Shown piece by piece: positions 850 through 38,844 of a stretch of DNA of 64,000 bases. Below the pieces are notes generated by a model. It was not told the DNA's origin, ran no database searches, and was given only the letters and a program-made list of their open reading frames with translations. The position numbers and the translations under genes are program-made. Position 1 is the first letter of the stretch. Each line of letters starts with the position of its first letter. Source of the stretch: a virus (taxonomy: Duplodnaviria > Heunggongvirae > Uroviricota > Caudoviricetes). The stretch lies in IMG/VR virus record IMGVR_UViG_2568526411_000004. One strand, 5' to 3'.

Positions 850-2565
850 ATGTCAGAGGTAGTTACGATTGCCGCCGACGCGGTAAATGCCGTGCTGAGT
901 CAGCCCAGCACAAAAGTAAAACTAATCGTTCAAAAGGCGCTTTCGTACCAAGTTGACGGCGCTGAAACAATGGCTGTTTTTAAACAGCATAAGTGGGATG
1001 GCCGTTCGTCCTTCTTTGTGTATAAAAATTGCTCCTTCCCTGCCGGCTTTCTTCATTTCGTCGCTGCCAATCTTCGCCGTGAGGGGTACAAGGTCAATAT
1101 TGTTCGCAAGCCCTTCCCTGCCCCTTTAGGCCCTGAGCGCCCACAGGTAGACGCTTTTGGTTATGACTCTAAATATGATTACCAACCAGAGGTTATGGAC
1201 AGGTTGGTAAAACATGGCCAAATCATTGCTCAGATTGCTACAGGTGGCGGTAAGTCACGTATTGCCCGTCTTTGTTTCGCTCGTATTGCTCGCCCTACCC
1301 TCTTTCTCACCACGCGCTCAATCCTGATGTATCAAATGAAGGATGCGTTTGAGAAAGATATGGGCATTCCATGTTCTGTCTTTGGTGATGGGCAATTTGG
1401 CAACGTGAACGCTCAAGGTCAGACGACTATCAAAATGATGTCGGTTGGCACAGTACAGACATTCATGAGCAAGTTGGAAGTCACCACAATTCAGGAAGAG
1501 TTCAATGTTCTGTTCAATGCCGTGCAGGAGAAGTTCAAAAAAGAAATTGTGGCATTGAAGGGCAAGTTAGCGAAAGCCAAGAAAAGTACAGCTGAAATTA
1601 CAGCTGCTACAAATGATCTGATTTCTAAACAGCAGGCATGGTTGAAGGCCAACAATCAAGACATGGCCAATAAGGCCAAAGCCAAATTTGACGAAAAGAA
1701 TATCGAGCGTCAAAAAACCATCAAGCTTCTTTCCATGTTCGAGTTCGTAATTTTGGAAGAGGCGCATGAAGCTTCAGGTAATTCTTACTACGAAATCTTG
1801 CGCTATTGTAAGAATGCTCATTACCGCTTGGCATTAACCGGTACGCCGTTTATGCGTGAGAGCGAAGAGTCGAACATGCGTCTAATGGCATGCTCTGGCC
1901 CGATCGCAATCAAAGTCACTGAGGAAATGCTAATTCAGCGCGGTGTACTTGCTAAGCCTTACTTCAAATATATTGAGCTTCGCAAAAAGCCAGATCACCT
2001 TCTCCGCACTACTGGTTGGCAATCGGCATATAGATTGGGTGTCACAGAAAATGAAGAACGCAATTTAGCTATTGTGAGTGAGATTATTCGAGCCAAAGCT
2101 TACGGTTTGACGTCGATGATTCTTGTGCAACATACATCGCATGGCGAGCATTTAAACGAGCTTTTAACGCAATATGGTTTACGTGCTGAGTTCATTAAGG
2201 GTGAAAACAATCAAGCTGAGCGCAAACTAGCGTTGAACAAGCTTGCCAGTGGTTCGGTTGATGCGCTAATTGGTACAACCATTTTGGATGTGGGAGTAGA
2301 CGTTCCAGCTGTGGGTATGATTATTCTTGCGGGCGGCGGTAAGGCTGAAATTGCATTGCGTCAACGTATTGGTCGCGGTTTGCGTGCGAAGAAGATTGGT
2401 CCAAATGTGGCGTTCATTGTCGACTTTACAGACCATTGGAATACACATACCAAAAAACATGCTACGCAGCGACGCGAGATTGTTTTGCATACTAAAGGTT
2501 TCGGAGAGAACATTGTTAATGATTTCAATTTTGAACAATTAGGCTTCACCAGATTGTCTGCATAA
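850..2565 (+). CDS. SF2 DEAH-type DNA/RNA helicase
   Basis: Motif I IATGGGKSR, motif II LEEAHE, motif III LTGTPF and motif VI QRIGRGLR are present. The ATG at 850 has an AAGGA SD; the track start at 808 is a TTG inside IS26. Confidence 0.8.
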   Translation: MSEVVTIAADAVNAVLSQPSTKVKLIVQKALSYQVDGAETMAVFKQHKWDGRSSFFVYKNCSFPAGFLHFVAANLRREGYKVNIVRKPFPAPLGPERPQVDAFGYDSKYDYQPEVMDRLVKHGQIIAQIATGGGKSRIARLCFARIARPTLFLTTRSILMYQMKDAFEKDMGIPCSVFGDGQFGNVNAQGQTTIKMMSVGTVQTFMSKLEVTTIQEEFNVLFNAVQEKFKKEIVALKGKLAKAKKSTAEITAATNDLISKQQAWLKANNQDMANKAKAKFDEKNIERQKTIKLLSMFEFVILEEAHEASGNSYYEILRYCKNAHYRLALTGTPFMRESEESNMRLMACSGPIAIKVTEEMLIQRGVLAKPYFKYIELRKKPDHLLRTTGWQSAYRLGVTENEERNLAIVSEIIRAKAYGLTSMILVQHTSHGEHLNELLTQYGLRAEFIKGENNQAERKLALNKLASGSVDALIGTTILDVGVDVPAVGMIILAGGGKAEIALRQRIGRGLRAKKIGPNVAFIVDFTDHWNTHTKKHATQRREIVLHTKGFGENIVNDFNFEQLGFTRLSA

Positions 2566-2571
2566 GAAAGG

Positions 2572-2602
2572 TTGCCACTTTAATGAGTGGCAATTCTTTT
2601 TG
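2572..2602 (+). terminator. rho-independent terminator after the helicase
   Basis: TTGCCACT-ttaatg-AGTGGCAA stem followed by TTCTTTTTGT. Confidence 0.7.
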
Positions 2603-2657
2603 TGACAAAGGTTTATGTATATAATTACTTGCGACAAGACAGTTTTTAGAGAAAGTT

Positions 2658-2936
2658 ATGCCATCGTTTGATTCAAAGAAGTTCTATGACGAAAAGGGTT
2701 TGGTACGTAAGCCATTCACTGTGACGCAAGAAGCCTCAGAGATTATTGCTCGTTTCGCTGAGAAGTACCCTACCCTTACGCAAGGCGATATTGTCTCGGT
2801 TTTGGCAGGTTTTCTTGAAGATGATCGCATGAGCTATGTAGTTGAAGAGGCTTGTGCTAAATTCGCTGAAGCCAAACCACCAAAAATTCATGCGAGAGCT
2901 GGTGGGCGGCCAAAAAAGAAAACAGAAGATTCTTAA
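2658..2936 (+). CDS. hypothetical protein with AT-hook-like C-terminus (GGRPKKK)
   Basis: 92-aa ORF downstream of the helicase on the same strand. Confidence 0.45.
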   Translation: MPSFDSKKFYDEKGLVRKPFTVTQEASEIIARFAEKYPTLTQGDIVSVLAGFLEDDRMSYVVEEACAKFAEAKPPKIHARAGGRPKKKTEDS

Positions 2937-3172
2937 TACTTTATAAGGTAAAAAATATGATGGTGTGGACTCCTACAATTGAAGCGCGTAAAAATTCTGA
3001 ATAACGATATTGAGTATGCGGGAATCAGGCTTTCCGACAAGGATGTGGAAGTATAAGGACTCATTCTCCGGCAGCCAGTCCTGAAAATATAAGGACGTTA
3101 TAGGAGGTCGGAGATTTAGGAAGGCTATGCATCCGGGGTTGAGCGAAATCTCTAGGACTTCGCTACTCTCTG

Positions 3173-3370
3173 TCAATTTAAAACTATGCGCTTGTTTGTA
3201 TGTTCGATATATGTGCATAAGAGCGCGAGACACACATAAAATATAAACGTCATAGCAAAATACAGCTTTGCAAAACTCAATGACACTTCACCGCTAACTG
3301 TATAAAACACCATTACAGCAAGCATGATTAAAACGAACACATTTATGATAATAATTATTAATGTTTTCAT
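3173..3370 (-). CDS. small hydrophobic two-TM protein
   Basis: 65 aa, strongly hydrophobic; a palindromic operator lies just upstream at 3406. Confidence 0.3.
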   Translation of the reverse strand: MKTLIIIIINVFVLIMLAVMVFYTVSGEVSLSFAKLYFAMTFIFYVCLALLCTYIEHTNKRIVLN

Positions 3371-3405
3371 AGCATCGCACCTTACAAGCTACTGACCGCT
3401 TATGC

Positions 3406-3423
3406 AGTCAGTAGTGACTGACT
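3406..3423. promoter_or_regulatory. palindromic operator, variant AGTCAGT-AGTG-ACTGACT
   Basis: Inverted 7-bp arms with a 4-bp spacer. This is the same half-site as the CAGTCAGTACTGACTG family. Confidence 0.6.
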
Positions 3424-3429
3424 TTTAAA

Positions 3430-4131
3430 TTAGCGTTTTTTCTCGATAGTGAATGTTTTAAACATTTCGACTATTAACGCGGTCACGTCTTCACTTGTAA
3501 AGCTGACCATACCGTGTTTTTCACCTTTCACAAGGTCGCATATATTGAACATTTGTAACATTGCTTTAGTTGAACATGTTTGAGTCGGTGCGGTATTCAT
3601 GCCCGTACTATGATACTGTCTAACGCGTTTAACGTTCTCTAACCCGTCTTTGTTCTCTATAGCAGCACACAAGCAACGTTCAAGCTCAAAATGACGTAAT
3701 TGTTTAAACTCGATTAAATTACGCAAAATAGAACGTGTGTACGGGTCAATCTTCATGCAGTTGTTTTGTGCAATTGCTTGCATGAGCTTGCGACACTTAA
3801 CAATTGCTTTGCTTGCTAAATAACCGTCTTTACCTTTTATATCTTCACTGTAATTACCGATAATGTCAGCGAATGCTTTTAGCTCGATACCTTTAATTAA
3901 ACATTGCTCTATAGTTGCTAAACCTGCATCAGTAGAGAAAAAGTTAATTTCACTTACTATGTCGCGTGATAACGGTTGATGCACCTTGCGTATCTCAAGG
4001 TTCGCAAGAATAGTCTTTTGTATGTTCTTAGCGCGTGCTTTGAAGTTTGTTTTAACTTCTTTTTTAGCAGTAGCAGCGTTTTCTATAGTTGTTTCAGCAG
4101 CTAAAAGATCAAGGTTTGCTTTAGTATTCAT
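3430..4131 (-). CDS. hypothetical protein
   Basis: The ORF track runs 3430-4209. An internal ATG at 4131 (MNTKANLD) has a GAGAT SD; the first ATG lacks an SD and sits on the palindrome at 4222-4240. Confidence 0.5.
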   Translation of the reverse strand: MNTKANLDLLAAETTIENAATAKKEVKTNFKARAKNIQKTILANLEIRKVHQPLSRDIVSEINFFSTDAGLATIEQCLIKGIELKAFADIIGNYSEDIKGKDGYLASKAIVKCRKLMQAIAQNNCMKIDPYTRSILRNLIEFKQLRHFELERCLCAAIENKDGLENVKRVRQYHSTGMNTAPTQTCSTKAMLQMFNICDLVKGEKHGMVSFTSEDVTALIVEMFKTFTIEKKR

Positions 4132-4221
4132 AGTAAAAATCTCACATCGGTTAAGTTGTTTTAGATACCGTCTAACTTTTTCGAGTAAGTTGTTTCGGTA
4201 TGAGTACATATTAGCACAAAA

Positions 4222-4240
4222 TTGACTTGTTACAAGTCAA
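4222..4240. promoter_or_regulatory. perfect 9-1-9 palindrome TTGACTTGT-T-ACAAGTCAA (operator)
   Basis: Seen directly. A related imperfect copy is at 4772-4790. Confidence 0.55.
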
Positions 4241-4365
4241 TTATTAAAAATAATTTGTTTATTTGTTTAAATTTTGATCAAACAAATAAACATGCTTTAA
4301 AATGCAATAAAACGCCCTTTTTAGAGCGTTTTATTCAAAATGGTATGATCTATCGACTATAGTGC

Positions 4366-4692
4366 TTAAATCACTGTTAAGCGTATGTTATGCACGTTTA
4401 ACGCAATGCTACGGTACTGCATAAAGTTAAGCATGTATCTATTAATAAAATCATTCATAAATGCGCTTTTAGATACCTTTAAAACTTTTTTGTGCTTAGT
4501 GATAGCTGTTAAGTATTCAATGCGCTTGTTTTGTCTCTCTATGCACTTATCAGCGTGAACTATTGCGCGTTGCTGTATTAAATGCATGTATGCGCGTTTA
4601 CCTTCTAATACACTATTAAGCAATTCACTATCATTGTTTAATTCATTAGCAAGTTTAGCTATAGCATTTTTACGCATAATTTGAGTTGTCAT
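4366..4692 (-). CDS. hypothetical protein
   Basis: 108-aa ORF with an AGAAGG SD upstream. Confidence 0.5.
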   Translation of the reverse strand: MTTQIMRKNAIAKLANELNNDSELLNSVLEGKRAYMHLIQQRAIVHADKCIERQNKRIEYLTAITKHKKVLKVSKSAFMNDFINRYMLNFMQYRSIALNVHNIRLTVI

Positions 4693-4771
4693 GATAAAAC
4701 CTTCTATTTAGTTAAGTTGTGTTTGTCGGTTTGTTTCGAGCTAACCGACTGAGTGAATAATTGCACCTAAA

Positions 4772-4790
4772 TTGACTTGTTGCAAGTTAA
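4772..4790. promoter_or_regulatory. imperfect copy of the TTGACTTGT-T-GCAAGTTAA palindrome
   Basis: Lies upstream of the 4692 gene start. Confidence 0.45.
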
Positions 4791-5090
4791 TTTTGAACGC
4801 AAAATAATCACTCGTTAAAAATAAAAACGAAATTAGAGTCAAAATCAATGAAAACCTTATGGCACAAGGGTTGGCGCGATTTTTGGGTGATCACGTCCGA
4901 GGCAATTCCTATCAAAAATTGGATTGCCGTGTGGCTCTTCCACGGCGGCACTGAGGCGAGTGGCAGCTCCTTATGCGAGCGTGCGGGTGTTTTAGGAAAA
5001 TTCTATAGTTCAGCCGAGGCAACGCCGTTTTTCACTCTTGGATGGGGCGTGGATCTGCTTTGGATTGTCCTAGGCATGTTGCGTACGATA

Positions 5091-8545: not shown

Positions 8546-9088
8546 TTAATAGTTTCGGTAAACCTTTCCTTCAGCTACAAGATAATCACTAATTAAAGCG
8601 TCGCGCCCGTAACGTTCATAGTCGAAATAACCTTGAATGTCCTCTGGTATTTCCAAAGCAGAACATTCATCAATTAAATAGCGTCCAAAATCATCGTCAT
8701 TTTCGTAGTCACACACGTAACGATCTTCGTGCCACTCTTTAACGTTTGACCAATCAGCATAGTTGCCTTCAACTAATGCAGCGTATGTGCCAACTTCTTT
8801 AACTTCATCAAGATCAAGGCTTACTAAAAACTCAATTAAAGTTTCAAGCATTTTGAATGATGAGACTTTTATCTCTTCGTTGGCCCAAGTGTCTTCTAGC
8901 TGCCAAAACTCTATCTCTACATCGCCTAACTCATCTATGAAGTCGTCGTATTCATCAAAGTAAAGGTTAAAACCGTGTTGATGCGTAAAGCTGAAGCCTT
9001 CTAAGCGAAAACGTTTCTTGTTATCAGGGTTAGAAAACTTCGCTAAAAACTGCTCTATAGTCACTTGATCGTTAGTTTCGTAAGTCAT
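8546..9088 (-). CDS. hypothetical highly acidic protein
   Basis: 180 aa, rich in D/E (DEYDDFIDELGD, YENDDDFG); ATG start with the conserved promoter and leader upstream. Confidence 0.6.
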   Translation of the reverse strand: MTYETNDQVTIEQFLAKFSNPDNKKRFRLEGFSFTHQHGFNLYFDEYDDFIDELGDVEIEFWQLEDTWANEEIKVSSFKMLETLIEFLVSLDLDEVKEVGTYAALVEGNYADWSNVKEWHEDRYVCDYENDDDFGRYLIDECSALEIPEDIQGYFDYERYGRDALISDYLVAEGKVYRNY

Positions 9089-22301: not shown

Positions 22302-23121
22302 GGCACTGTTGCAAAGTTAGCGATGAGGCAGCCTTTTGTCTTATTCAAAGGCCTTACATTTCAAAAACTCTGCTTACCAGGCGCATTTCGCCCAGGGGAT
22401 CACCATAATAAAATGCTGAGGCCTGGCCTTTGCGTAGTGCACGCATCACCTCAATACCTTTGATGGTGGCGTAAGCCGTCTTCATGGATTTAAATCCCAG
22501 CGTGGCGCCGATTATCCGTTTCAGTTTGCCATGATCGCATTCAATCACGTTGTTCCGGTACTTAATCTGTCGGTGTTCAACGTCAGACGGGCACCGGCCT
22601 TCGCGTTTGAGCAGAGCAAGCGCGCGACCATAGGCGGGCGCTTTATCCGTGTTGATGAATCGCGGGATCTGCCACTTCTTCACGTTGTTGAGGATTTTAC
22701 CCAGAAACCGGTATGCAGCTTTGCTGTTACGACGGGAGGAGAGATAAAAATCGACAGTGCGGCCCCGGCTGTCGACGGCCCGGTACAGATACGCCCAGCG
22801 GCCATTGACCTTCACGTAGGTTTCATCCATGTGCCACGGGCAAAGATCGGAAGGGTTACGCCAGTACCAGCGCAGCCGTTTTTCCATTTCAGGCGCATAA
22901 CGCTGAACCCAGCGGTAAATCGTGGAGTGATCGACATTCACTCCGCGTTCAGCCAGCATCTCCTGCAGCTCACGGTAACTGATGCCGTATTTGCAGTACC
23001 AGCGTACGGCCCACAGAATGATGTCACGCTGAAAATGCCGGCCTTTGAATGGGTTCATGTGCAGCTCCATCAGCAAAAGGGGATGATAAGTTTATCACCA
23101 CCGACTATTTGCAACAGTGCC
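22302..23121 (-). mobile_element. IS26: IS26 copy 2, complete, inverted relative to copy 1
   Basis: GGCACTGTTGCAAA at 22302-22315 is the reverse complement of the right end; TTTGCAACAGTGCC is at 23108-23121. The flanking 8-mers AAGAACTC and ACTACAAC differ, so there is no simple TSD. Confidence 0.95.
22354..23076 (-). CDS. tnp26: IS26 transposase
   Basis: The 240-aa protein is identical to the one encoded at 46-768. Confidence 0.95.
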   Translation of the reverse strand: MLMELHMNPFKGRHFQRDIILWAVRWYCKYGISYRELQEMLAERGVNVDHSTIYRWVQRYAPEMEKRLRWYWRNPSDLCPWHMDETYVKVNGRWAYLYRAVDSRGRTVDFYLSSRRNSKAAYRFLGKILNNVKKWQIPRFINTDKAPAYGRALALLKREGRCPSDVEHRQIKYRNNVIECDHGKLKRIIGATLGFKSMKTAYATIKGIEVMRALRKGQASAFYYGDPLGEMRLVSRVFEM

Positions 23122-23157
23122 ACTACAACTATCATAAAGATCCAAAACCAGCCGTCG

Positions 23158-23580
23158 TTATGTATCATTGCGTTTCTCTCCTCTCAAAATTGCAATAACG
23201 TCATCAAACTGCTTAAAAAACATGGATTGACCAATACAAGTCATGTCAGCCCTTGCAAGCGCCGAATTAATACGATTTTGAAGTTCGTCCACTTTTAATT
23301 GTTGTTCCTGCCAAGCCTCCCATTGCAAACCAATTGCTAAAGGAACTGATCTTCCTTGTCGGCTTGGTATATACAATTTTCCATTATGAAAAAATGCCGT
23401 TGTTCTATGCTTCTGAATATGGCGAATAAAACGCAATTCATGATCTTGAGTTGCGCCATAATCTTTCAGTTTTTCATAATAAATACGTTCGCCATCCACA
23501 ACATACGAGGCGCACGACAAGCATTGATCAGTCTGCTCTCGGCAAACGGGGCATGATTGGAAATTTTTAAACTCACTCAT
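23158..23580 (-). CDS. Cys-cluster (zinc-finger-like) protein
   Basis: CPVC...C..C near the N-terminus. The ATG at 23580 overlaps the upstream gene's stop. Confidence 0.45.
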   Translation of the reverse strand: MSEFKNFQSCPVCREQTDQCLSCASYVVDGERIYYEKLKDYGATQDHELRFIRHIQKHRTTAFFHNGKLYIPSRQGRSVPLAIGLQWEAWQEQQLKVDELQNRINSALARADMTCIGQSMFFKQFDDVIAILRGEKRNDT

Positions 23581-27796: not shown

Positions 27797-27866
27797 TGTT
27801 GGGTAACACTCACTTTTTAAAAAGAGGTGACTAATGCCACCCCTCGTTCTCTGAGCGTTAAAGTAT

Positions 27867-27880
27867 AGTCAGTACTGACT
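27867..27880. promoter_or_regulatory. palindromic operator AGTCAGTACTGACT (followed by TATACT) in the divergent thyX / doc-module region
   Basis: Perfect palindrome. Confidence 0.65.
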
Positions 27881-28026
27881 GATCTTTTGGAGTTTATTTT
27901 CAGCAAAATAGGCTTATTTTTAGCCAGTTGTTTTATGTTTACGAATAAACAGTTAAAATGAACCATGACATTCGATCGACGCAATGAATTGACATTGGAT
28001 CGACGTTTGTTAAAGAGGTTAATTAC

Positions 28027-28389
28027 ATGAAAAGATTTAGCGAGTTTTTAGCTGAGCGTAAAAACAAATCTAAAAGCGAAAGAATTTTAGAGCTTCAAAG
28101 AGTTTTTAAATCAACTCCTGAAGTTAGCGAAGAAGAGAAGGAACGCTTAGTTAAAAGATATTTGTCACAACACGCCAGCATTAAAGAGGCGGTTGAAGTT
28201 ATGACGTCTTTAAAGCTTTCTCAGGAGTATGCGAAGGTTATGGATGAAATTCATAACGATGTGTTGGCTCGCGCGGCTGTAGCAATGGAGTTAAATGCAT
28301 CTCCTGCTTCTGAGCGTTTGGTGCGCGGAGTTGCTCGCAGTGTTATTCGTGATCATCACGAGGAACTCGAACGTCTGGCTTATAAGTAA
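28027..28389 (+). CDS. putative antitoxin partner of the Doc toxin (not Phd-like)
   Basis: 120-aa helical, charged protein. Its stop overlaps the doc start (TAATG). Confidence 0.4.
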   Translation: MKRFSEFLAERKNKSKSERILELQRVFKSTPEVSEEEKERLVKRYLSQHASIKEAVEVMTSLKLSQEYAKVMDEIHNDVLARAAVAMELNASPASERLVRGVARSVIRDHHEELERLAYK

Positions 28390-28808
28390 TGTATGATCCA
28401 GCGCCATTAATTAACGCAACGCTTGTTGAAGCGATTCATAGCGAGATTTTAGACAGCGTAGAAGGAGGCATGAGAGGTCCAACTAATTATGGTCTTCTCG
28501 AAAGTGCTTTAAATAGAGTTCAGCAGTATGTTTATTATGACGGTTTGAATGACATTTATGAGATTGCGGCATGGTATGGGATTTCTATTTCCACTCAACA
28601 TGCATTCTCAGACGGCAATAAGCGAACTGGATTAACCGTAATGTTGACTTACCTTCGTATGCAAGGCGTCTATATCGAGCCTAATCAAGATCTTGATGAC
28701 ATGATGGTTGATATTGTGCAAAGCGCACAATCAACAGAAGATGGAAATCATAAAGAGATTGCTGAGGCTTTAGCTGAGTATCTCTATCAGTATGTTCATC
28801 AGTTATAG
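28389..28808 (+). CDS. doc: Doc/Fic-family toxin
   Basis: Fic/Doc motif HAFSDGNKRTG (HxFxDGNKR). Confidence 0.8.
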   Translation: MYDPAPLINATLVEAIHSEILDSVEGGMRGPTNYGLLESALNRVQQYVYYDGLNDIYEIAAWYGISISTQHAFSDGNKRTGLTVMLTYLRMQGVYIEPNQDLDDMMVDIVQSAQSTEDGNHKEIAEALAEYLYQYVHQL

Positions 28809-28837
28809 AAAAGGCGCATTAAGCGCCTTTTCTTTTA
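28808..28837. terminator. bidirectional terminator (GGCGC-attaa-GCGCC flanked by A- and T-runs)
   Basis: Lies between the convergent doc and nrdB genes. Confidence 0.7.
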
Positions 28838-29827
28838 CCATGCTAACGCACCGCCAGTTTTGTAGTCTGTTACGCGTGTTTCAAAGAAATTCTTTTCGGC
28901 TGTATTAGGCTTAGAGAACTCTTCTACCCACGGAAACGGATTTACCACACCAGGATAAGGCACAAATGGCGCTCGAATTTGAGCGGCGCGTTTATTAGCT
29001 AAATATTTAATATACAGTTCAATCGCTTCTGGATTGGTAACGCCTTGATGAATATATTGACCCCAACTAATTTCCATTTTGGTAGATTCATCAATGATTT
29101 TAGCCGCATCTTCCCAAAATGAAGAAGTAAACACTTCAGGATTTTCAATACGCAATGTTTCAATCATGTTCAAGAACAGATCAAGATGCGTTCCTTCTTC
29201 ATCACGTTGAATATAGCGAATCATATCCGCAGAACCCAACATCTTACCTTTGAAAGCAAGTAGATAAAATCCTAAGAATCCTGAGAAGAAATACTCGCCC
29301 TCAAGCATGACGTTAGAAATGCAAGCAAGGGCAAAACCACGCGCTGAGAACTGATCTCCCAAGATGCGTGATTGACGCAAAATAAACTCGTTTTTCTTCG
29401 CCAAAATACCATCGCGTTCAAATGTCATATAGACACTCATTGGGTCCGCTGAGACCGTTTCGATGAGTTTGGCATAAGACTCTACATGGTTGGCTTCCTC
29501 CCAAGCTTGACGGGACAAACATATGGCAACTTCCGGTGAGGTCACATGTTTTGCAATATTTTGGTTGATATTGTGAAATTGAATGCCGTCAAGGTTCGAT
29601 AAAAACGCAAGGCTCTTGTCATACAATCGACGTTCCGCTTCGGTAAGCTTGTCTCGATAGCAAATGCCTTCATTACTCAAGTCGACCACTTCGGGGAACC
29701 AATTGTTATCCTTCATGCGTTGATGAATGTCTCTGGCCCATGTGTGTTTCATCGGGCTGATCGCCATAAGGTCATCCTTTGGCCCTAAAATTAAGCGTCG
29801 ATCATTAATTCGGTTTGCGTATGTCAT
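28835..29827 (-). CDS. nrdB: ribonucleotide reductase small subunit (class I)
   Basis: 330 aa with the EEANHVESY iron ligands typical of R2. Confidence 0.85.
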   Translation of the reverse strand: MTYANRINDRRLILGPKDDLMAISPMKHTWARDIHQRMKDNNWFPEVVDLSNEGICYRDKLTEAERRLYDKSLAFLSNLDGIQFHNINQNIAKHVTSPEVAICLSRQAWEEANHVESYAKLIETVSADPMSVYMTFERDGILAKKNEFILRQSRILGDQFSARGFALACISNVMLEGEYFFSGFLGFYLLAFKGKMLGSADMIRYIQRDEEGTHLDLFLNMIETLRIENPEVFTSSFWEDAAKIIDESTKMEISWGQYIHQGVTNPEAIELYIKYLANKRAAQIRAPFVPYPGVVNPFPWVEEFSKPNTAEKNFFETRVTDYKTGGALAW

Positions 29828-37782: not shown

Positions 37783-38181
37783 TTATTTTGCCATATAAAA
37801 ATGATGGTTGCCTATTTGACCAACATATTTGAGTTGTTTTTCCCAGCCTCGCTTACGATGTGAGAAAAAATGAGTAACACCGCTGTACCGTACTGGAACT
37901 GAAAATCGACCATTTAAGGCTTGTTCTGCAATTCGTTTTGAATCTTCCCAAGCTTCTTTTTCTTTTGGCTTTCCGCTGCTGTTGAGCGTTCTACCGCTTA
38001 CCTTACTTGCAGTCCATGAGAATTGATGTTTTCTAAGGACTTCCTGACAAATTTTACTATTGTCGCCTTCAGCGCGGTTAAGGGTGGTAATTGCAACTAA
38101 CTCTTTGCCTAGCTTTGGTTCACCTCGTGCTTCGTGGTAAATGTTCAAAGCTAGGCATGTCAGCGCGGATGTCAAAATCAT
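37783..38181 (-). CDS. SleB/CwlJ-family cell wall hydrolase
   Basis: The NIYHEARGE motif. The start is set at the ATG that overlaps the upstream stop (TAATG); the N-terminus is signal-like (MILTSALTCLA). Confidence 0.6.
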   Translation of the reverse strand: MILTSALTCLALNIYHEARGEPKLGKELVAITTLNRAEGDNSKICQEVLRKHQFSWTASKVSGRTLNSSGKPKEKEAWEDSKRIAEQALNGRFSVPVRYSGVTHFFSHRKRGWEKQLKYVGQIGNHHFYMAK

Positions 38182-38429
38182 TATGGTCGAACTCCTTGTC
38201 GTATTTTCTTCACAGCTGAAAGCCAATTTTTCTCGGCTCTATGGCAAGAAGGAGAAACAGGAGCGGGGAGAGAAAAGCCCGTTTTTGGGTCTTTCAAGAC
38301 AACGTGACCGCCTTTACTTTGGCGATATGTCCAACCTTCCTTAATTAAGGCTTTAGCTGCTCGGTCAATCGTGCGATTGTTAGAAATGTTCATATCTTTA
38401 AACTCTTTGTTTGTTTCAGATATGAACAT
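38181..38429 (-). CDS. small basic protein with weak HicA/YcfA-like resemblance
   Basis: The EGWTYRQSKGGHVVLKDPKTG segment matches the pattern only loosely. Confidence 0.25.
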   Translation of the reverse strand: MFISETNKEFKDMNISNNRTIDRAAKALIKEGWTYRQSKGGHVVLKDPKTGFSLPAPVSPSCHRAEKNWLSAVKKIRQGVRP

Positions 38430-38463: not shown

Positions 38464-38844
38464 CTACTTAATTTTGAGTGATTTTTCAAGATTGCCGTGA
38501 AAACGCTCTGAATTGATCATGAATTTGTTCATGTTTAAACGTTTGTACAAGCCTTTTGATGTGCTGTGTGGTTCGCAGTTCTCGAGAAAGTGGCTTAAAG
38601 GGGTGAGGTAGTAAGTGCATTTCTTGTTTACGCGGTGAACTACCCCAATTGCATCAATTGAGTTGTTAATACAATGACTGATGATAATAGGTTCAAAAAG
38701 CCATGAGTTGGTCTTTAAATCAATATTGCGATTCTTAGCTCCTGATCTCATGGCCAAGTAGATAGATTTGCCGCCTTGCGTGTAAACCATGCCGACTTGT
38801 TTGCCGTTGATTGAGTGTGGTTTTCTCATGAAAATAACCCCCAA
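38464..38844 (-). CDS. hypothetical protein
   Basis: 126 aa. Confidence 0.4.
   Translation of the reverse strand: MGVIFMRKPHSINGKQVGMVYTQGGKSIYLAMRSGAKNRNIDLKTNSWLFEPIIISHCINNSIDAIGVVHRVNKKCTYYLTPLSHFLENCEPHSTSKGLYKRLNMNKFMINSERFHGNLEKSLKIK

Follow-up and report, generated by a model that had tools for sequence, protein, structure and literature searches.

A Doc toxin gene and its putative antitoxin from an unnamed protein family in an Acinetobacter phage-plasmid

Doc toxins pair with several unrelated antitoxin families, and a guilt-by-association rule has been formulated for toxin-antitoxin (TA) systems (Makarova et al. 2009, PMC2701414); this mix-and-match principle is well known and not new. 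In the Phd-Doc pair of the plasmid-prophage P1, the phosphorylation of EF-Tu by Doc is established (PMC4803016, PMC10440598), and residues 52-73 of Phd alone inhibit Doc, with picomolar affinity and in a kinked form (PMC10728895). The two-helix element Phd-C is portable between antitoxin scaffolds and is sufficient when fused to SUMO (Ernits et al. 2023, PMC10440598). In the PanA_Phd-C:Doc pair of Corynebacterium doosanense, an instance of 'linear neutralisation', the accessory part of the antitoxin is dispensable for neutralisation (PMC10440598). Here we describe a Doc pair from the virus record IMGVR_UViG_2568526411_000004 of IMG/VR (Caudoviricetes), of which a stretch of 64,000 nucleotides, hereafter the window, was analysed. 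The two genes, as given by the list of open reading frames (ORFs), are:

28027..28389, plus strand: partner gene, 120 amino acids (aa), putative antitoxin
28389..28808, plus strand: doc gene, 139 aa, with HAFSDGNKRTG encoded at 28599-28631

We consider it probable that they form a type II TA moron, in which the C-terminal helices of the partner neutralise the Doc kinase and which prevents loss of the element carrying it.

The 139-aa protein is, judged by its profile matches and motif, an ordinary toxin of the Doc subfamily of Fic proteins with an intact kinase-type motif. It matches Pfam Fic (PF02661) with 54.2 bits (cut-off 24, E = 2.8e-14), NCBIfam TIGR01550 (DOC_P1, death-on-curing family toxin) with 66 bits (cut-off 38.65, E = 3.3e-18) over profile positions 7-115 of 122, and phrog_577, a 'Doc-like toxin', at 1.8e-38. 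The signature HAFSDGNKRTG, from which an earlier note on this DNA had rightly recognised the protein as Doc, occupies residues 71-81. Its segment H71-AFSDGNKR-79 follows the Doc-type pattern HxFx(D/N)(A/G)NKR and not the AMPylating pattern HxFx(D/E)GNGRxxR, and it aligns with HIFNDANKR of P1 Doc. The latter is also the nearest relative in the PDB (2.2e-13), with 37% identity over the catalytic core and the motif residues H, D, N, K and R retained. The doc codons show a dN/dS of 0.03-0.07, and hence strong purifying selection. By homology with P1 Doc, the protein would phosphorylate EF-Tu, whereupon translation would stop.

The two genes have the layout of a type II TA system, being adjacent and co-oriented, with the antitoxin position first and an overlap. 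As the earlier note had described, the overlap has the form TAATG, in which the TAA stop of the partner gene (28387-28389) and the ATG of doc (28389-28391) share one base; the phd and doc genes of P1, likewise with the antitoxin gene first, overlap identically. A ribosome-binding site, AAAGAGG, lies at 28012-28018, 8 nt 5' of the partner ATG. Reading the sequence ahead of the doc ATG, we saw none, so that the sole such site precedes the partner gene, which suggests that partner and doc are translationally coupled.

Both genes run against their surroundings. In the RefSeq annotation of an identical plasmid, checked over 23.2-50 kb of the window, where plasmid and window agree at every base, the pair are the only coding sequences not on the minus strand. 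In the ORF list of the window, all long ORFs between ~3.4 and 55 kb are on the minus strand, save the pair and shadow ORFs. The pair had been called the only plus-strand unit in a minus-strand block of ~30 kb; this is true, and understated, as the block spans about 50 kb. The only other long plus-strand ORF, 22531-23298, is the shadow of an IS26-type transposase gene; this gene, of the IS26/IS6 family, lies inside the block at 22354-23076 (minus strand; DDE_Tnp_IS240, 2.5e-48). We rejected as a gene a 55-aa ORF in the intergenic region (27817-27984, minus strand), which is unannotated and of which a chromosomal copy of the region has just a part.

Searches with the 120-aa partner returned nothing significant in Pfam, NCBIfam or PADLOC, and no Pfam hit, Phd/YefM (PF02604) included, at E <= 1. 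Its sole match in PHROGs was to phrog_8906, of 'unknown function'. Comparing a profile of the partner family with P1 Phd in hhalign gave a probability of 0.1%, that is, no relationship. Sequence and profile searches against PDB yielded chance hits only, a tblastn search against 50,697 phage records yielded no match, and neither Pfam nor PDB contained a ribbon-helix-helix (RHH) match even at E = 10. Neither the Panacea domain (DUF4065) nor any other Pfam domain occurs in the partner or in nine longer members of its family.

AlphaFold2 predicts the partner to be all-helical. Residues 1-90 are modelled as helices with low confidence (pLDDT about 60; pTM of the whole model 0.29), whereas residues 91-120 reach a pLDDT of 87-89 and comprise a helix (93-109), a kink at the invariant His110 and a second helix (111-119); an extended segment (84-92) precedes these helices of 17 and 9 residues. 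For a 59-aa homologue, the prediction is coil in the N-terminal half, followed by the same helix-kink-helix (pLDDT about 90); a Foldseek search of this model against PDB gave no match at E <= 10. In neither the 120-aa nor the 59-aa form is a folded N-terminal alpha/beta domain of the Phd/YefM type predicted. The earlier description of the partner as helical and unlike Phd/YefM agrees with these results. Its label as 'non-Phd' is apt for the ancestry and the N-terminal domain, but not necessarily for the mechanism, since the C-terminal helices, as the likely neutralising element, would act like those of Phd. Where P1 Phd has an N-terminal DNA-binding domain of alpha/beta fold, and the AbrB/MazE and Xre antitoxins that also combine with Doc (Makarova et al. 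2009) have recognisable DNA-binding domains, none is detectable in the partner.

An initial search for homologues gave eight clusters, all from Acinetobacter and 94-124 aa long, with a near-invariant C-terminus SPASERLVRGVARSVIRDHHEELERLAYK, the conserved start MKRFSEFLAERK and middles that cannot be aligned. The next clade of Doc proteins (128 aa, about 48% identity), found in Acinetobacter prophages and Wohlfahrtiimonas, has upstream of it a 59-aa gene, MIKRLKDFKVEDRK...ATKRVVMHSAKRVIRQHKDEIQELAYK, whose product is homologous to both ends of the 120-aa partner, and the Burkholderia phage phiBtTUL1a has a 60-aa gene upstream of Doc that has its C-terminal part in common with the partner. Profile searches extended the family to 99 clusters in a set of 5.8 billion sequences and to 83 representative clusters among 1.84 billion. 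When a genome collection was scanned with the 120-aa query, no more than two additional loci were confirmed, since this query gives weak scores to short homologues. The usual length in the family is 59 aa, within a range from 32 to 253 aa. All members are 'hypothetical' and none has a Pfam domain; long, short and very long forms were blank in Pfam, NCBIfam and PADLOC and matched in PHROGs just phrog_8906 and phrog_11529, both of 'unknown function'. The earlier surmise of a new antitoxin family is therefore borne out as far as naming goes: by these searches the family is small, unannotated, without a name in Pfam, NCBIfam, PADLOC or PHROGs and, as far as we found, uncharacterised. A 2026 paper reports a Doc/NpoA pair predicted by TAfinder 2.0 on the chromosome of A. 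baumannii ACICU (PMC13114088). We traced no definition of the label 'NpoA', which may or may not equal the 59-aa family; if it does, a database label already exists, while a characterisation does not.

A Doc gene lies directly downstream of every partner homologue examined, overlapping it or within 13 nt, and in each locus examined the Doc motif follows the C-terminal module of the partner on the same strand, at a fixed distance. Both long forms that we checked, of 253 and 212 aa, are directly 5' of Doc, on elements of about 100-108 kb. No natural fusion of partner and Doc was found among longer Doc homologues. The pair occurs in at least eight kinds of genomic setting:

AB phage-plasmids (the window and loci L002, L006, L017)
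chromosomes of A. oleivorans and A. lactucae (L003-5)
tail region of Acinetobacter prophages (L008/9)
Wohlfahrtiimonas (L010/11)
Burkholderia phage phiBtTUL1a (L007)
two other elements of about 100 kb (L012-14)
an Acinetobacter metagenome-assembled genome
A. venetianus (L019/20)

The partner is the only candidate antitoxin, and its strict linkage to Doc across unrelated contexts accords with the rule of guilt by association. In one of these settings, a metagenomic contig of about 100 kb (L012/L013, locus 2501-4884), the 253-aa member, a 128-aa Doc and an Abi_2 gene follow each other on the plus strand, and this trio adjoins thyX-nrdB on the minus strand; in this phage lineage, the vicinity of the nucleotide-metabolism genes may be a preferred site for genes of accessory or defence function.

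The partner of the window can be divided into three parts:

28027-28065, plus strand, codons 1-13: conserved N-terminal helix motif MKRFSEFLAERK
28066-28278, plus strand, codons 14-84: hypervariable helical insert, 71 aa
28279..28386, plus strand, codons 85-120: C-terminal module AVAMELNASPASERLVRGVARSVIRDHHEELERLAYK, family-wide, predicted helix-kink-helix

The module of ~36 residues is the sole part common to all members and always stands at the very end of the protein; in the family alignment, columns A103, V106, H110, L117 and A118 are invariant. The N-terminal parts ahead of it are mutually unrelated among members and lack Pfam domains; the short N-terminal helix motif is common to many members, not to all. 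Between this motif and the module, the insert measures from 0 to about 200 aa, and 71 aa in the window.

For an estimate of selection, we compared the window allele with three other alleles in a protein-guided codon alignment. The ends of the partner gene (codons 1-13 and 85-120) show nonsynonymous divergence (dN) of 0.03-0.08 and synonymous divergence (dS) of 0.2-0.6, with the C-terminal module alone at dN 0.05-0.08. In the middle (codons 14-84), dN is 0.56-0.89 and dS 1.1-2.4, so that the dN of the module is 10-20 times below that of the middle. The dN/dS ratio of the middle is 0.35-0.5; positive selection on it was looked for and not seen. From these values, set against those of the constrained ends, the middle is best described as an older, recombined-in segment under relaxed and not positive selection, lying between tightly constrained ends. 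By the lengths in the family, the size of 120 aa is a lineage-specific expansion of a protein of usually 59 aa; the earlier note, which had set the partner apart by this size, was right for the window but not for the family.

The modular build invites comparison with PanA_Phd-C, in which a short two-helix C-terminal element is likewise combined with interchangeable N-terminal parts; in our family, one module closes proteins that measure 32 to 253 aa and are unrelated in their N-terminal parts. The two differ in that our family lacks Panacea and any other Pfam domain, and in that its accessory part is a variable helical segment, apparently of low complexity, and not a conserved globular domain.

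The region around the pair is 100% identical over 4 kb to 27 circular plasmids of A. baumannii, 104-114 kb in size and all typed as 'non-mobilizable'. The window encodes a phage-type DnaE polymerase, closest to those of RHEph10-like Rhizobium phages and Pseudomonas phage Nickie (40-43%), together with a UvsX-like recombinase, SbcCD, a DNA ligase, a helicase and CobS/CobT-like proteins; nucleotide metabolism is represented by a ribonucleotide reductase, ThyX and a dUTPase. The 'AB' group of phage-plasmids, of about 110 kb and restricted to Acinetobacter, is distantly related to RHEph10 and Nickie (Pfeifer et al. 2021, PMC7969092). On this gene content and size, the element is an Acinetobacter phage-plasmid of the AB group, in keeping with the plasmid-prophage setting, as in P1, that had been anticipated. 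It has no close relative in a phage collection of 50,697 records, from which the element itself also appears to be missing.

In the sister subgroup, represented by pABTJ2 (NC_020524.1), nrdB is 72% identical to that of the window at the DNA level, and a thyX homologue (52% protein identity) stands 12 nt from it with no Doc pair between, whereas in the window thyX and nrdB are separated by 230 bp of regulatory DNA, both genes of the pair and a hairpin. Because the junction of pABTJ2 is empty, the Doc pair is, by comparison of the two elements, a unit inserted between thyX and nrdB. A. oleivorans and A. lactucae carry the same cassette on their chromosomes, flanked by an Mpo1-like gene and thiE and with no phage genes around. 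Homology between these chromosomes and the window starts with a palindrome at ~27864, left of which the DNA is unrelated, spans both genes and the terminator and extends into what remains of the nrdB 3' end. In the chromosomal loci (L003-L005, locus 3840-5000), this remnant of the phage-plasmid gene amounts to 49 aa beside the cassette. Remnant and extent of homology together point to transfer of the cassette from a phage-plasmid-like source into the chromosome, and to a cassette that moves as a unit. The earlier view of the pair as an inserted module is thus upheld by both the empty junction and the chromosomal copies.

In several relatives, namely L022 (NZ_CP140432.1) and the others of 108,159 bp, ISAba1 splits nrdA, the gene for the alpha chain of ribonucleotide reductase (about 29.9-32.3 kb of the window). 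The Doc cassette, 1 kb away, is intact in these elements with a broken nrdA, which suggests that some of them decay as phages yet persist as plasmids.

The DNA flanking the two genes contains the following features:

27864..28026, plus strand: conserved upstream regulatory region, 85-97% identical between phage-plasmid and chromosomal copies
27867..27880, no strand assigned: perfect 14-bp palindrome AGTCAGTACTGACT, left edge of the conserved cassette, possible operator
27954-27959, plus strand: TAAAAT, invariant, from its sequence a candidate -10 box
27966..27981, plus strand: direct repeat 1, TGACATTCGATCGACG, candidate operator half
27990..28005, plus strand: direct repeat 2, TGACATTGGATCGACG, 24 nt from repeat 1 and ending 6 nt before AAAGAGG
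28807..28836, both strands: bidirectional intrinsic terminator, an inverted repeat between the convergent doc and nrdB

A consensus promoter scan called nothing in 27864-28026. The palindromic operator of the earlier note corresponds to the perfect palindrome AGTCAGTACTGACT, which lies 147 nt upstream of the partner ATG and recurs with a single mismatch in the chromosomal copy; what stands next to the ribosome-binding site, however, is the pair of direct repeats. These 16-nt repeats read TGACATT[C/G]GATCGACG. Across four divergent loci, their halves TGACA and TCGACG (TGACA-N5-TCGACG, twice) do not change whereas the intervening bases do, a pattern suggestive of a protein-binding site. Placed before the ribosome-binding site, they are the likeliest candidate for a site of autoregulation. 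In the leader 27960-28030 (plus strand), if transcribed, the two repeats would pair with each other in a hairpin (-18.8 kcal/mol, z = -2.8, 1 of 200 shuffles as good); this may be a feature at the RNA level or a by-product of TCGA-rich repeats.

The terminator hairpin, with arms at 28807-28817 and 28823-28833 flanked by an A-tract and a U-tract, occupies the 26-nt gap that separates the stops of doc and nrdB. As had been proposed, it is bidirectional, folding strongly on both strands (z about -5.7): its free energy is -18.6 kcal/mol on the plus strand (z = -5.9) and -20.8 kcal/mol on the minus strand (z = -5.6). The hairpin is kept in all copies, the chromosomal one included; a simple consensus scan did not detect it. 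Rfam returned two sub-threshold hits only, both on this hairpin and both taken as chance; one was to the small RNA STnc250 (28801-28895, minus strand; 24.3 bits against a gathering threshold of 42, E = 0.039).

We propose the following mechanism. The cassette would be a self-contained 'moron' with its own promoter region, two coupled genes and its own terminator. It would probably be expressed in the plasmid-prophage state, because it faces away from the DNA-metabolism genes of the lytic cycle and has its own terminator. The partner would be the antitoxin, whose conserved helix-kink-helix (residues about 92-120) binds and blocks Doc, acting like the portable 'Phd-C' element of Phd and PanA_Phd-C without a detectable sequence relationship to it. 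We infer this role for the module because it is the sole universal part of the family and because of the precedent of Phd, in which the neutraliser is a kinked C-terminal helix. The 71-residue helical middle would be a recombining, lineage-specific insert, presumably dispensable for the core function, as most members are only 59 aa long; Phd has no such insert. The two direct repeats would likely serve autoregulation, with candidate operators that differ in kind from those of P1. The charges of the proteins fit direct binding: in the clade of the window, a very acidic Doc (-14) faces basic partners (+1.9; short form +5.7), which suggests an interface different in detail from that of the acidic Phd-C. 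Loss of the element would then be penalised by post-segregational growth arrest, and exclusion of phages is also conceivable. Prevention of the loss of the phage-plasmid is the most likely role on the genomic evidence, which it fits in that the cassette faces away from its neighbours with a terminator of its own and stays intact where nrdA is broken.

A number of points weigh against this reading. We found no published experiment on the pair or on any family member. The partner has no DNA-binding domain recognisable in Pfam, NCBIfam or PDB searches and its model is mostly of low confidence, so that classical autoregulation is unsupported. Ahead of the C-terminal helices, the strand-like segment differs from allele to allele (AVAMEL, AVGIGL, AVMIGL, ACVILD) while the repeat halves do not, a poor fit to the idea that this segment reads the repeats. 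In the model, the module has a beta-alpha-alpha topology and could be a dimerisation or DNA-binding element. It has no sequence similarity to Phd-C, and its charge is opposite, for which reason it may bind Doc in a different mode. Finally, sequence alone cannot separate a role in addiction from one in defence.

The last point leads to the alternative that the same module was selected for abortive infection or superinfection exclusion by the lysogen, and not for plasmid addiction. On infection, the antitoxin would be depleted or displaced and Doc would halt translation; the variable middle would be the part that encounters phage factors. The 253-aa member, which with its Doc stands directly before an Abi_2 gene and beside thyX-nrdB on an element of ~100 kb, speaks for such a role, as do the moron positions that short-form pairs occupy in prophage tail regions, a weak match of the window Doc to the candidate defence component PDC-M59B of PADLOC (1.5e-7), and the mosaic, recombining nature of the middle (dS 1.1-2.4 against 0.2-0.6 in the flanks); sensory roles have also been proposed for accessory antitoxin domains (Ernits et al., PMC10440598). 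Yet the dN/dS of the middle, at 0.35-0.5, is not above 1, the majority of members lack a middle altogether, PADLOC returned nothing for the partner, and a low-copy plasmid-prophage classically needs addiction, as P1 does. We therefore regard selection for defence in place of addiction as possible but rather unlikely, noting that the two roles are not mutually exclusive. A more specific proposal, which we find doubtful, is that the partner represents a class of modular antitoxins without a DNA-binding domain, built from a Doc clamp of ~30 aa and a recombining sensor or decoy middle, and serving phage exclusion; the middle would then be an allele-specific detector of invading phage proteins or host proteases.

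The roles of the two ends could also be reversed, with an RHH-like C-terminal module that dimerises and binds the direct repeats, and the N-terminal helix MKRFSEFLAERK or the middle neutralising Doc. The predicted order of extended segment (84-92), 17-residue helix and 9-residue helix is indeed that of RHH proteins, the N-terminal motif is conserved in many members too, and so are the repeats. But the module sits at the extreme C-terminus, while known RHH antitoxins have their domain at the N-terminus with the toxin-binding tail after it (PMC4803016); between its helices there is a one-residue kink, at an invariant His, in place of the usual G-x-S/T/N loop; the strand-like residues vary where the repeats do not; Burkholderia-type and several other members still pair with Doc although they lack the N-terminal motif; and the searches for RHH matches and the Foldseek search were blank. 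We consider this arrangement improbable because of the C-terminal position of the module, the motif that is not universal and the missing RHH signal. That Doc is instead a lytic effector which shuts off host translation, with the partner as a regulator, a chaperone or an unrelated co-transcribed gene, would suit a cassette embedded among lytic DNA-metabolism genes, as well as the PHROGs category of Doc-like toxins, 'moron, auxiliary metabolic gene and host takeover'. It is very unlikely, given a cassette that is transcribed opposite to all its neighbours with its own terminator and persists in chromosomes without phage genes, where an unneutralised Doc would not be tolerated; strict pairing and a one-base overlap are, moreover, typical of TA operons. 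The resemblance to YhfG-FicT and VbhA-VbhT, in which a small basic helical partner is likewise encoded upstream of a Fic-fold toxin, raises the further idea that the partner inserts the inhibitory glutamate of an [S/T]xxxE[G/N] helix into the Fic active site. The invariant SPASER of the long forms does contain S-x-x-x-E, but its sixth position is R and not G/N, and the motif is not conserved: the short forms read (D/E)ATKR(V/I) and Burkholderia SPAGRK, with no Glu at this place. The toxin, in turn, is of the Doc kinase type and lacks the AMPylating motif which that mechanism targets, and there is no hit to YhfG or another Pfam domain. As the comparison of motifs already contradicts it, this idea has hardly any probability left.

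What is new here is a concrete, predicted antitoxin family that is absent from domain libraries and has an unusual build: a universal C-terminal two-helix module, an often conserved N-terminal motif and, between them, an allele-exchanged middle of 0 to about 200 residues. With TA neutralisation by the module as the preferred reading, the pair would offer a clean natural test of the 'linear neutralisation' model, according to which Doc can be tamed by no more than a short portable peptide. The exact partner protein is recorded on at least 1000 A. baumannii contigs, and the host phage-plasmids carry macrolide-resistance genes, msr(E)/mph(E) flanked by IS26, in some isolates. If the cassette stabilises the phage-plasmids, it would help to keep them in clinical lineages. 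Were the sensor view true, the cassette would provide, beyond addiction, a tunable exclusion of competing phages and phage-plasmids.

Other parts of the element yielded a few observations of their own. In NZ_CP031445.1 (L016), an otherwise identical plasmid, the transposase region contains IS26-msr(E)-mph(E)-IS26. At 38181-38393 (minus strand), beside a cell-wall hydrolase (neighbours at 37783-38181 and 38464-38829), the RefSeq annotation has a 'HicA family toxin' of about 70 aa. With 21.2 bits it does not reach the Pfam HicA_toxin threshold of 27, and a Pfam search of the neighbouring 120-aa ORF gave neither HicB nor any other hit; it is a possible second toxin gene of the element, orphan or degenerate. 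An ArdA antirestriction protein is annotated in NZ_CP031445.1 at 1582-2124, corresponding to 8546-9088 of the window (minus strand), early in the minus-strand block, and the element therefore also carries anti-defence functions.

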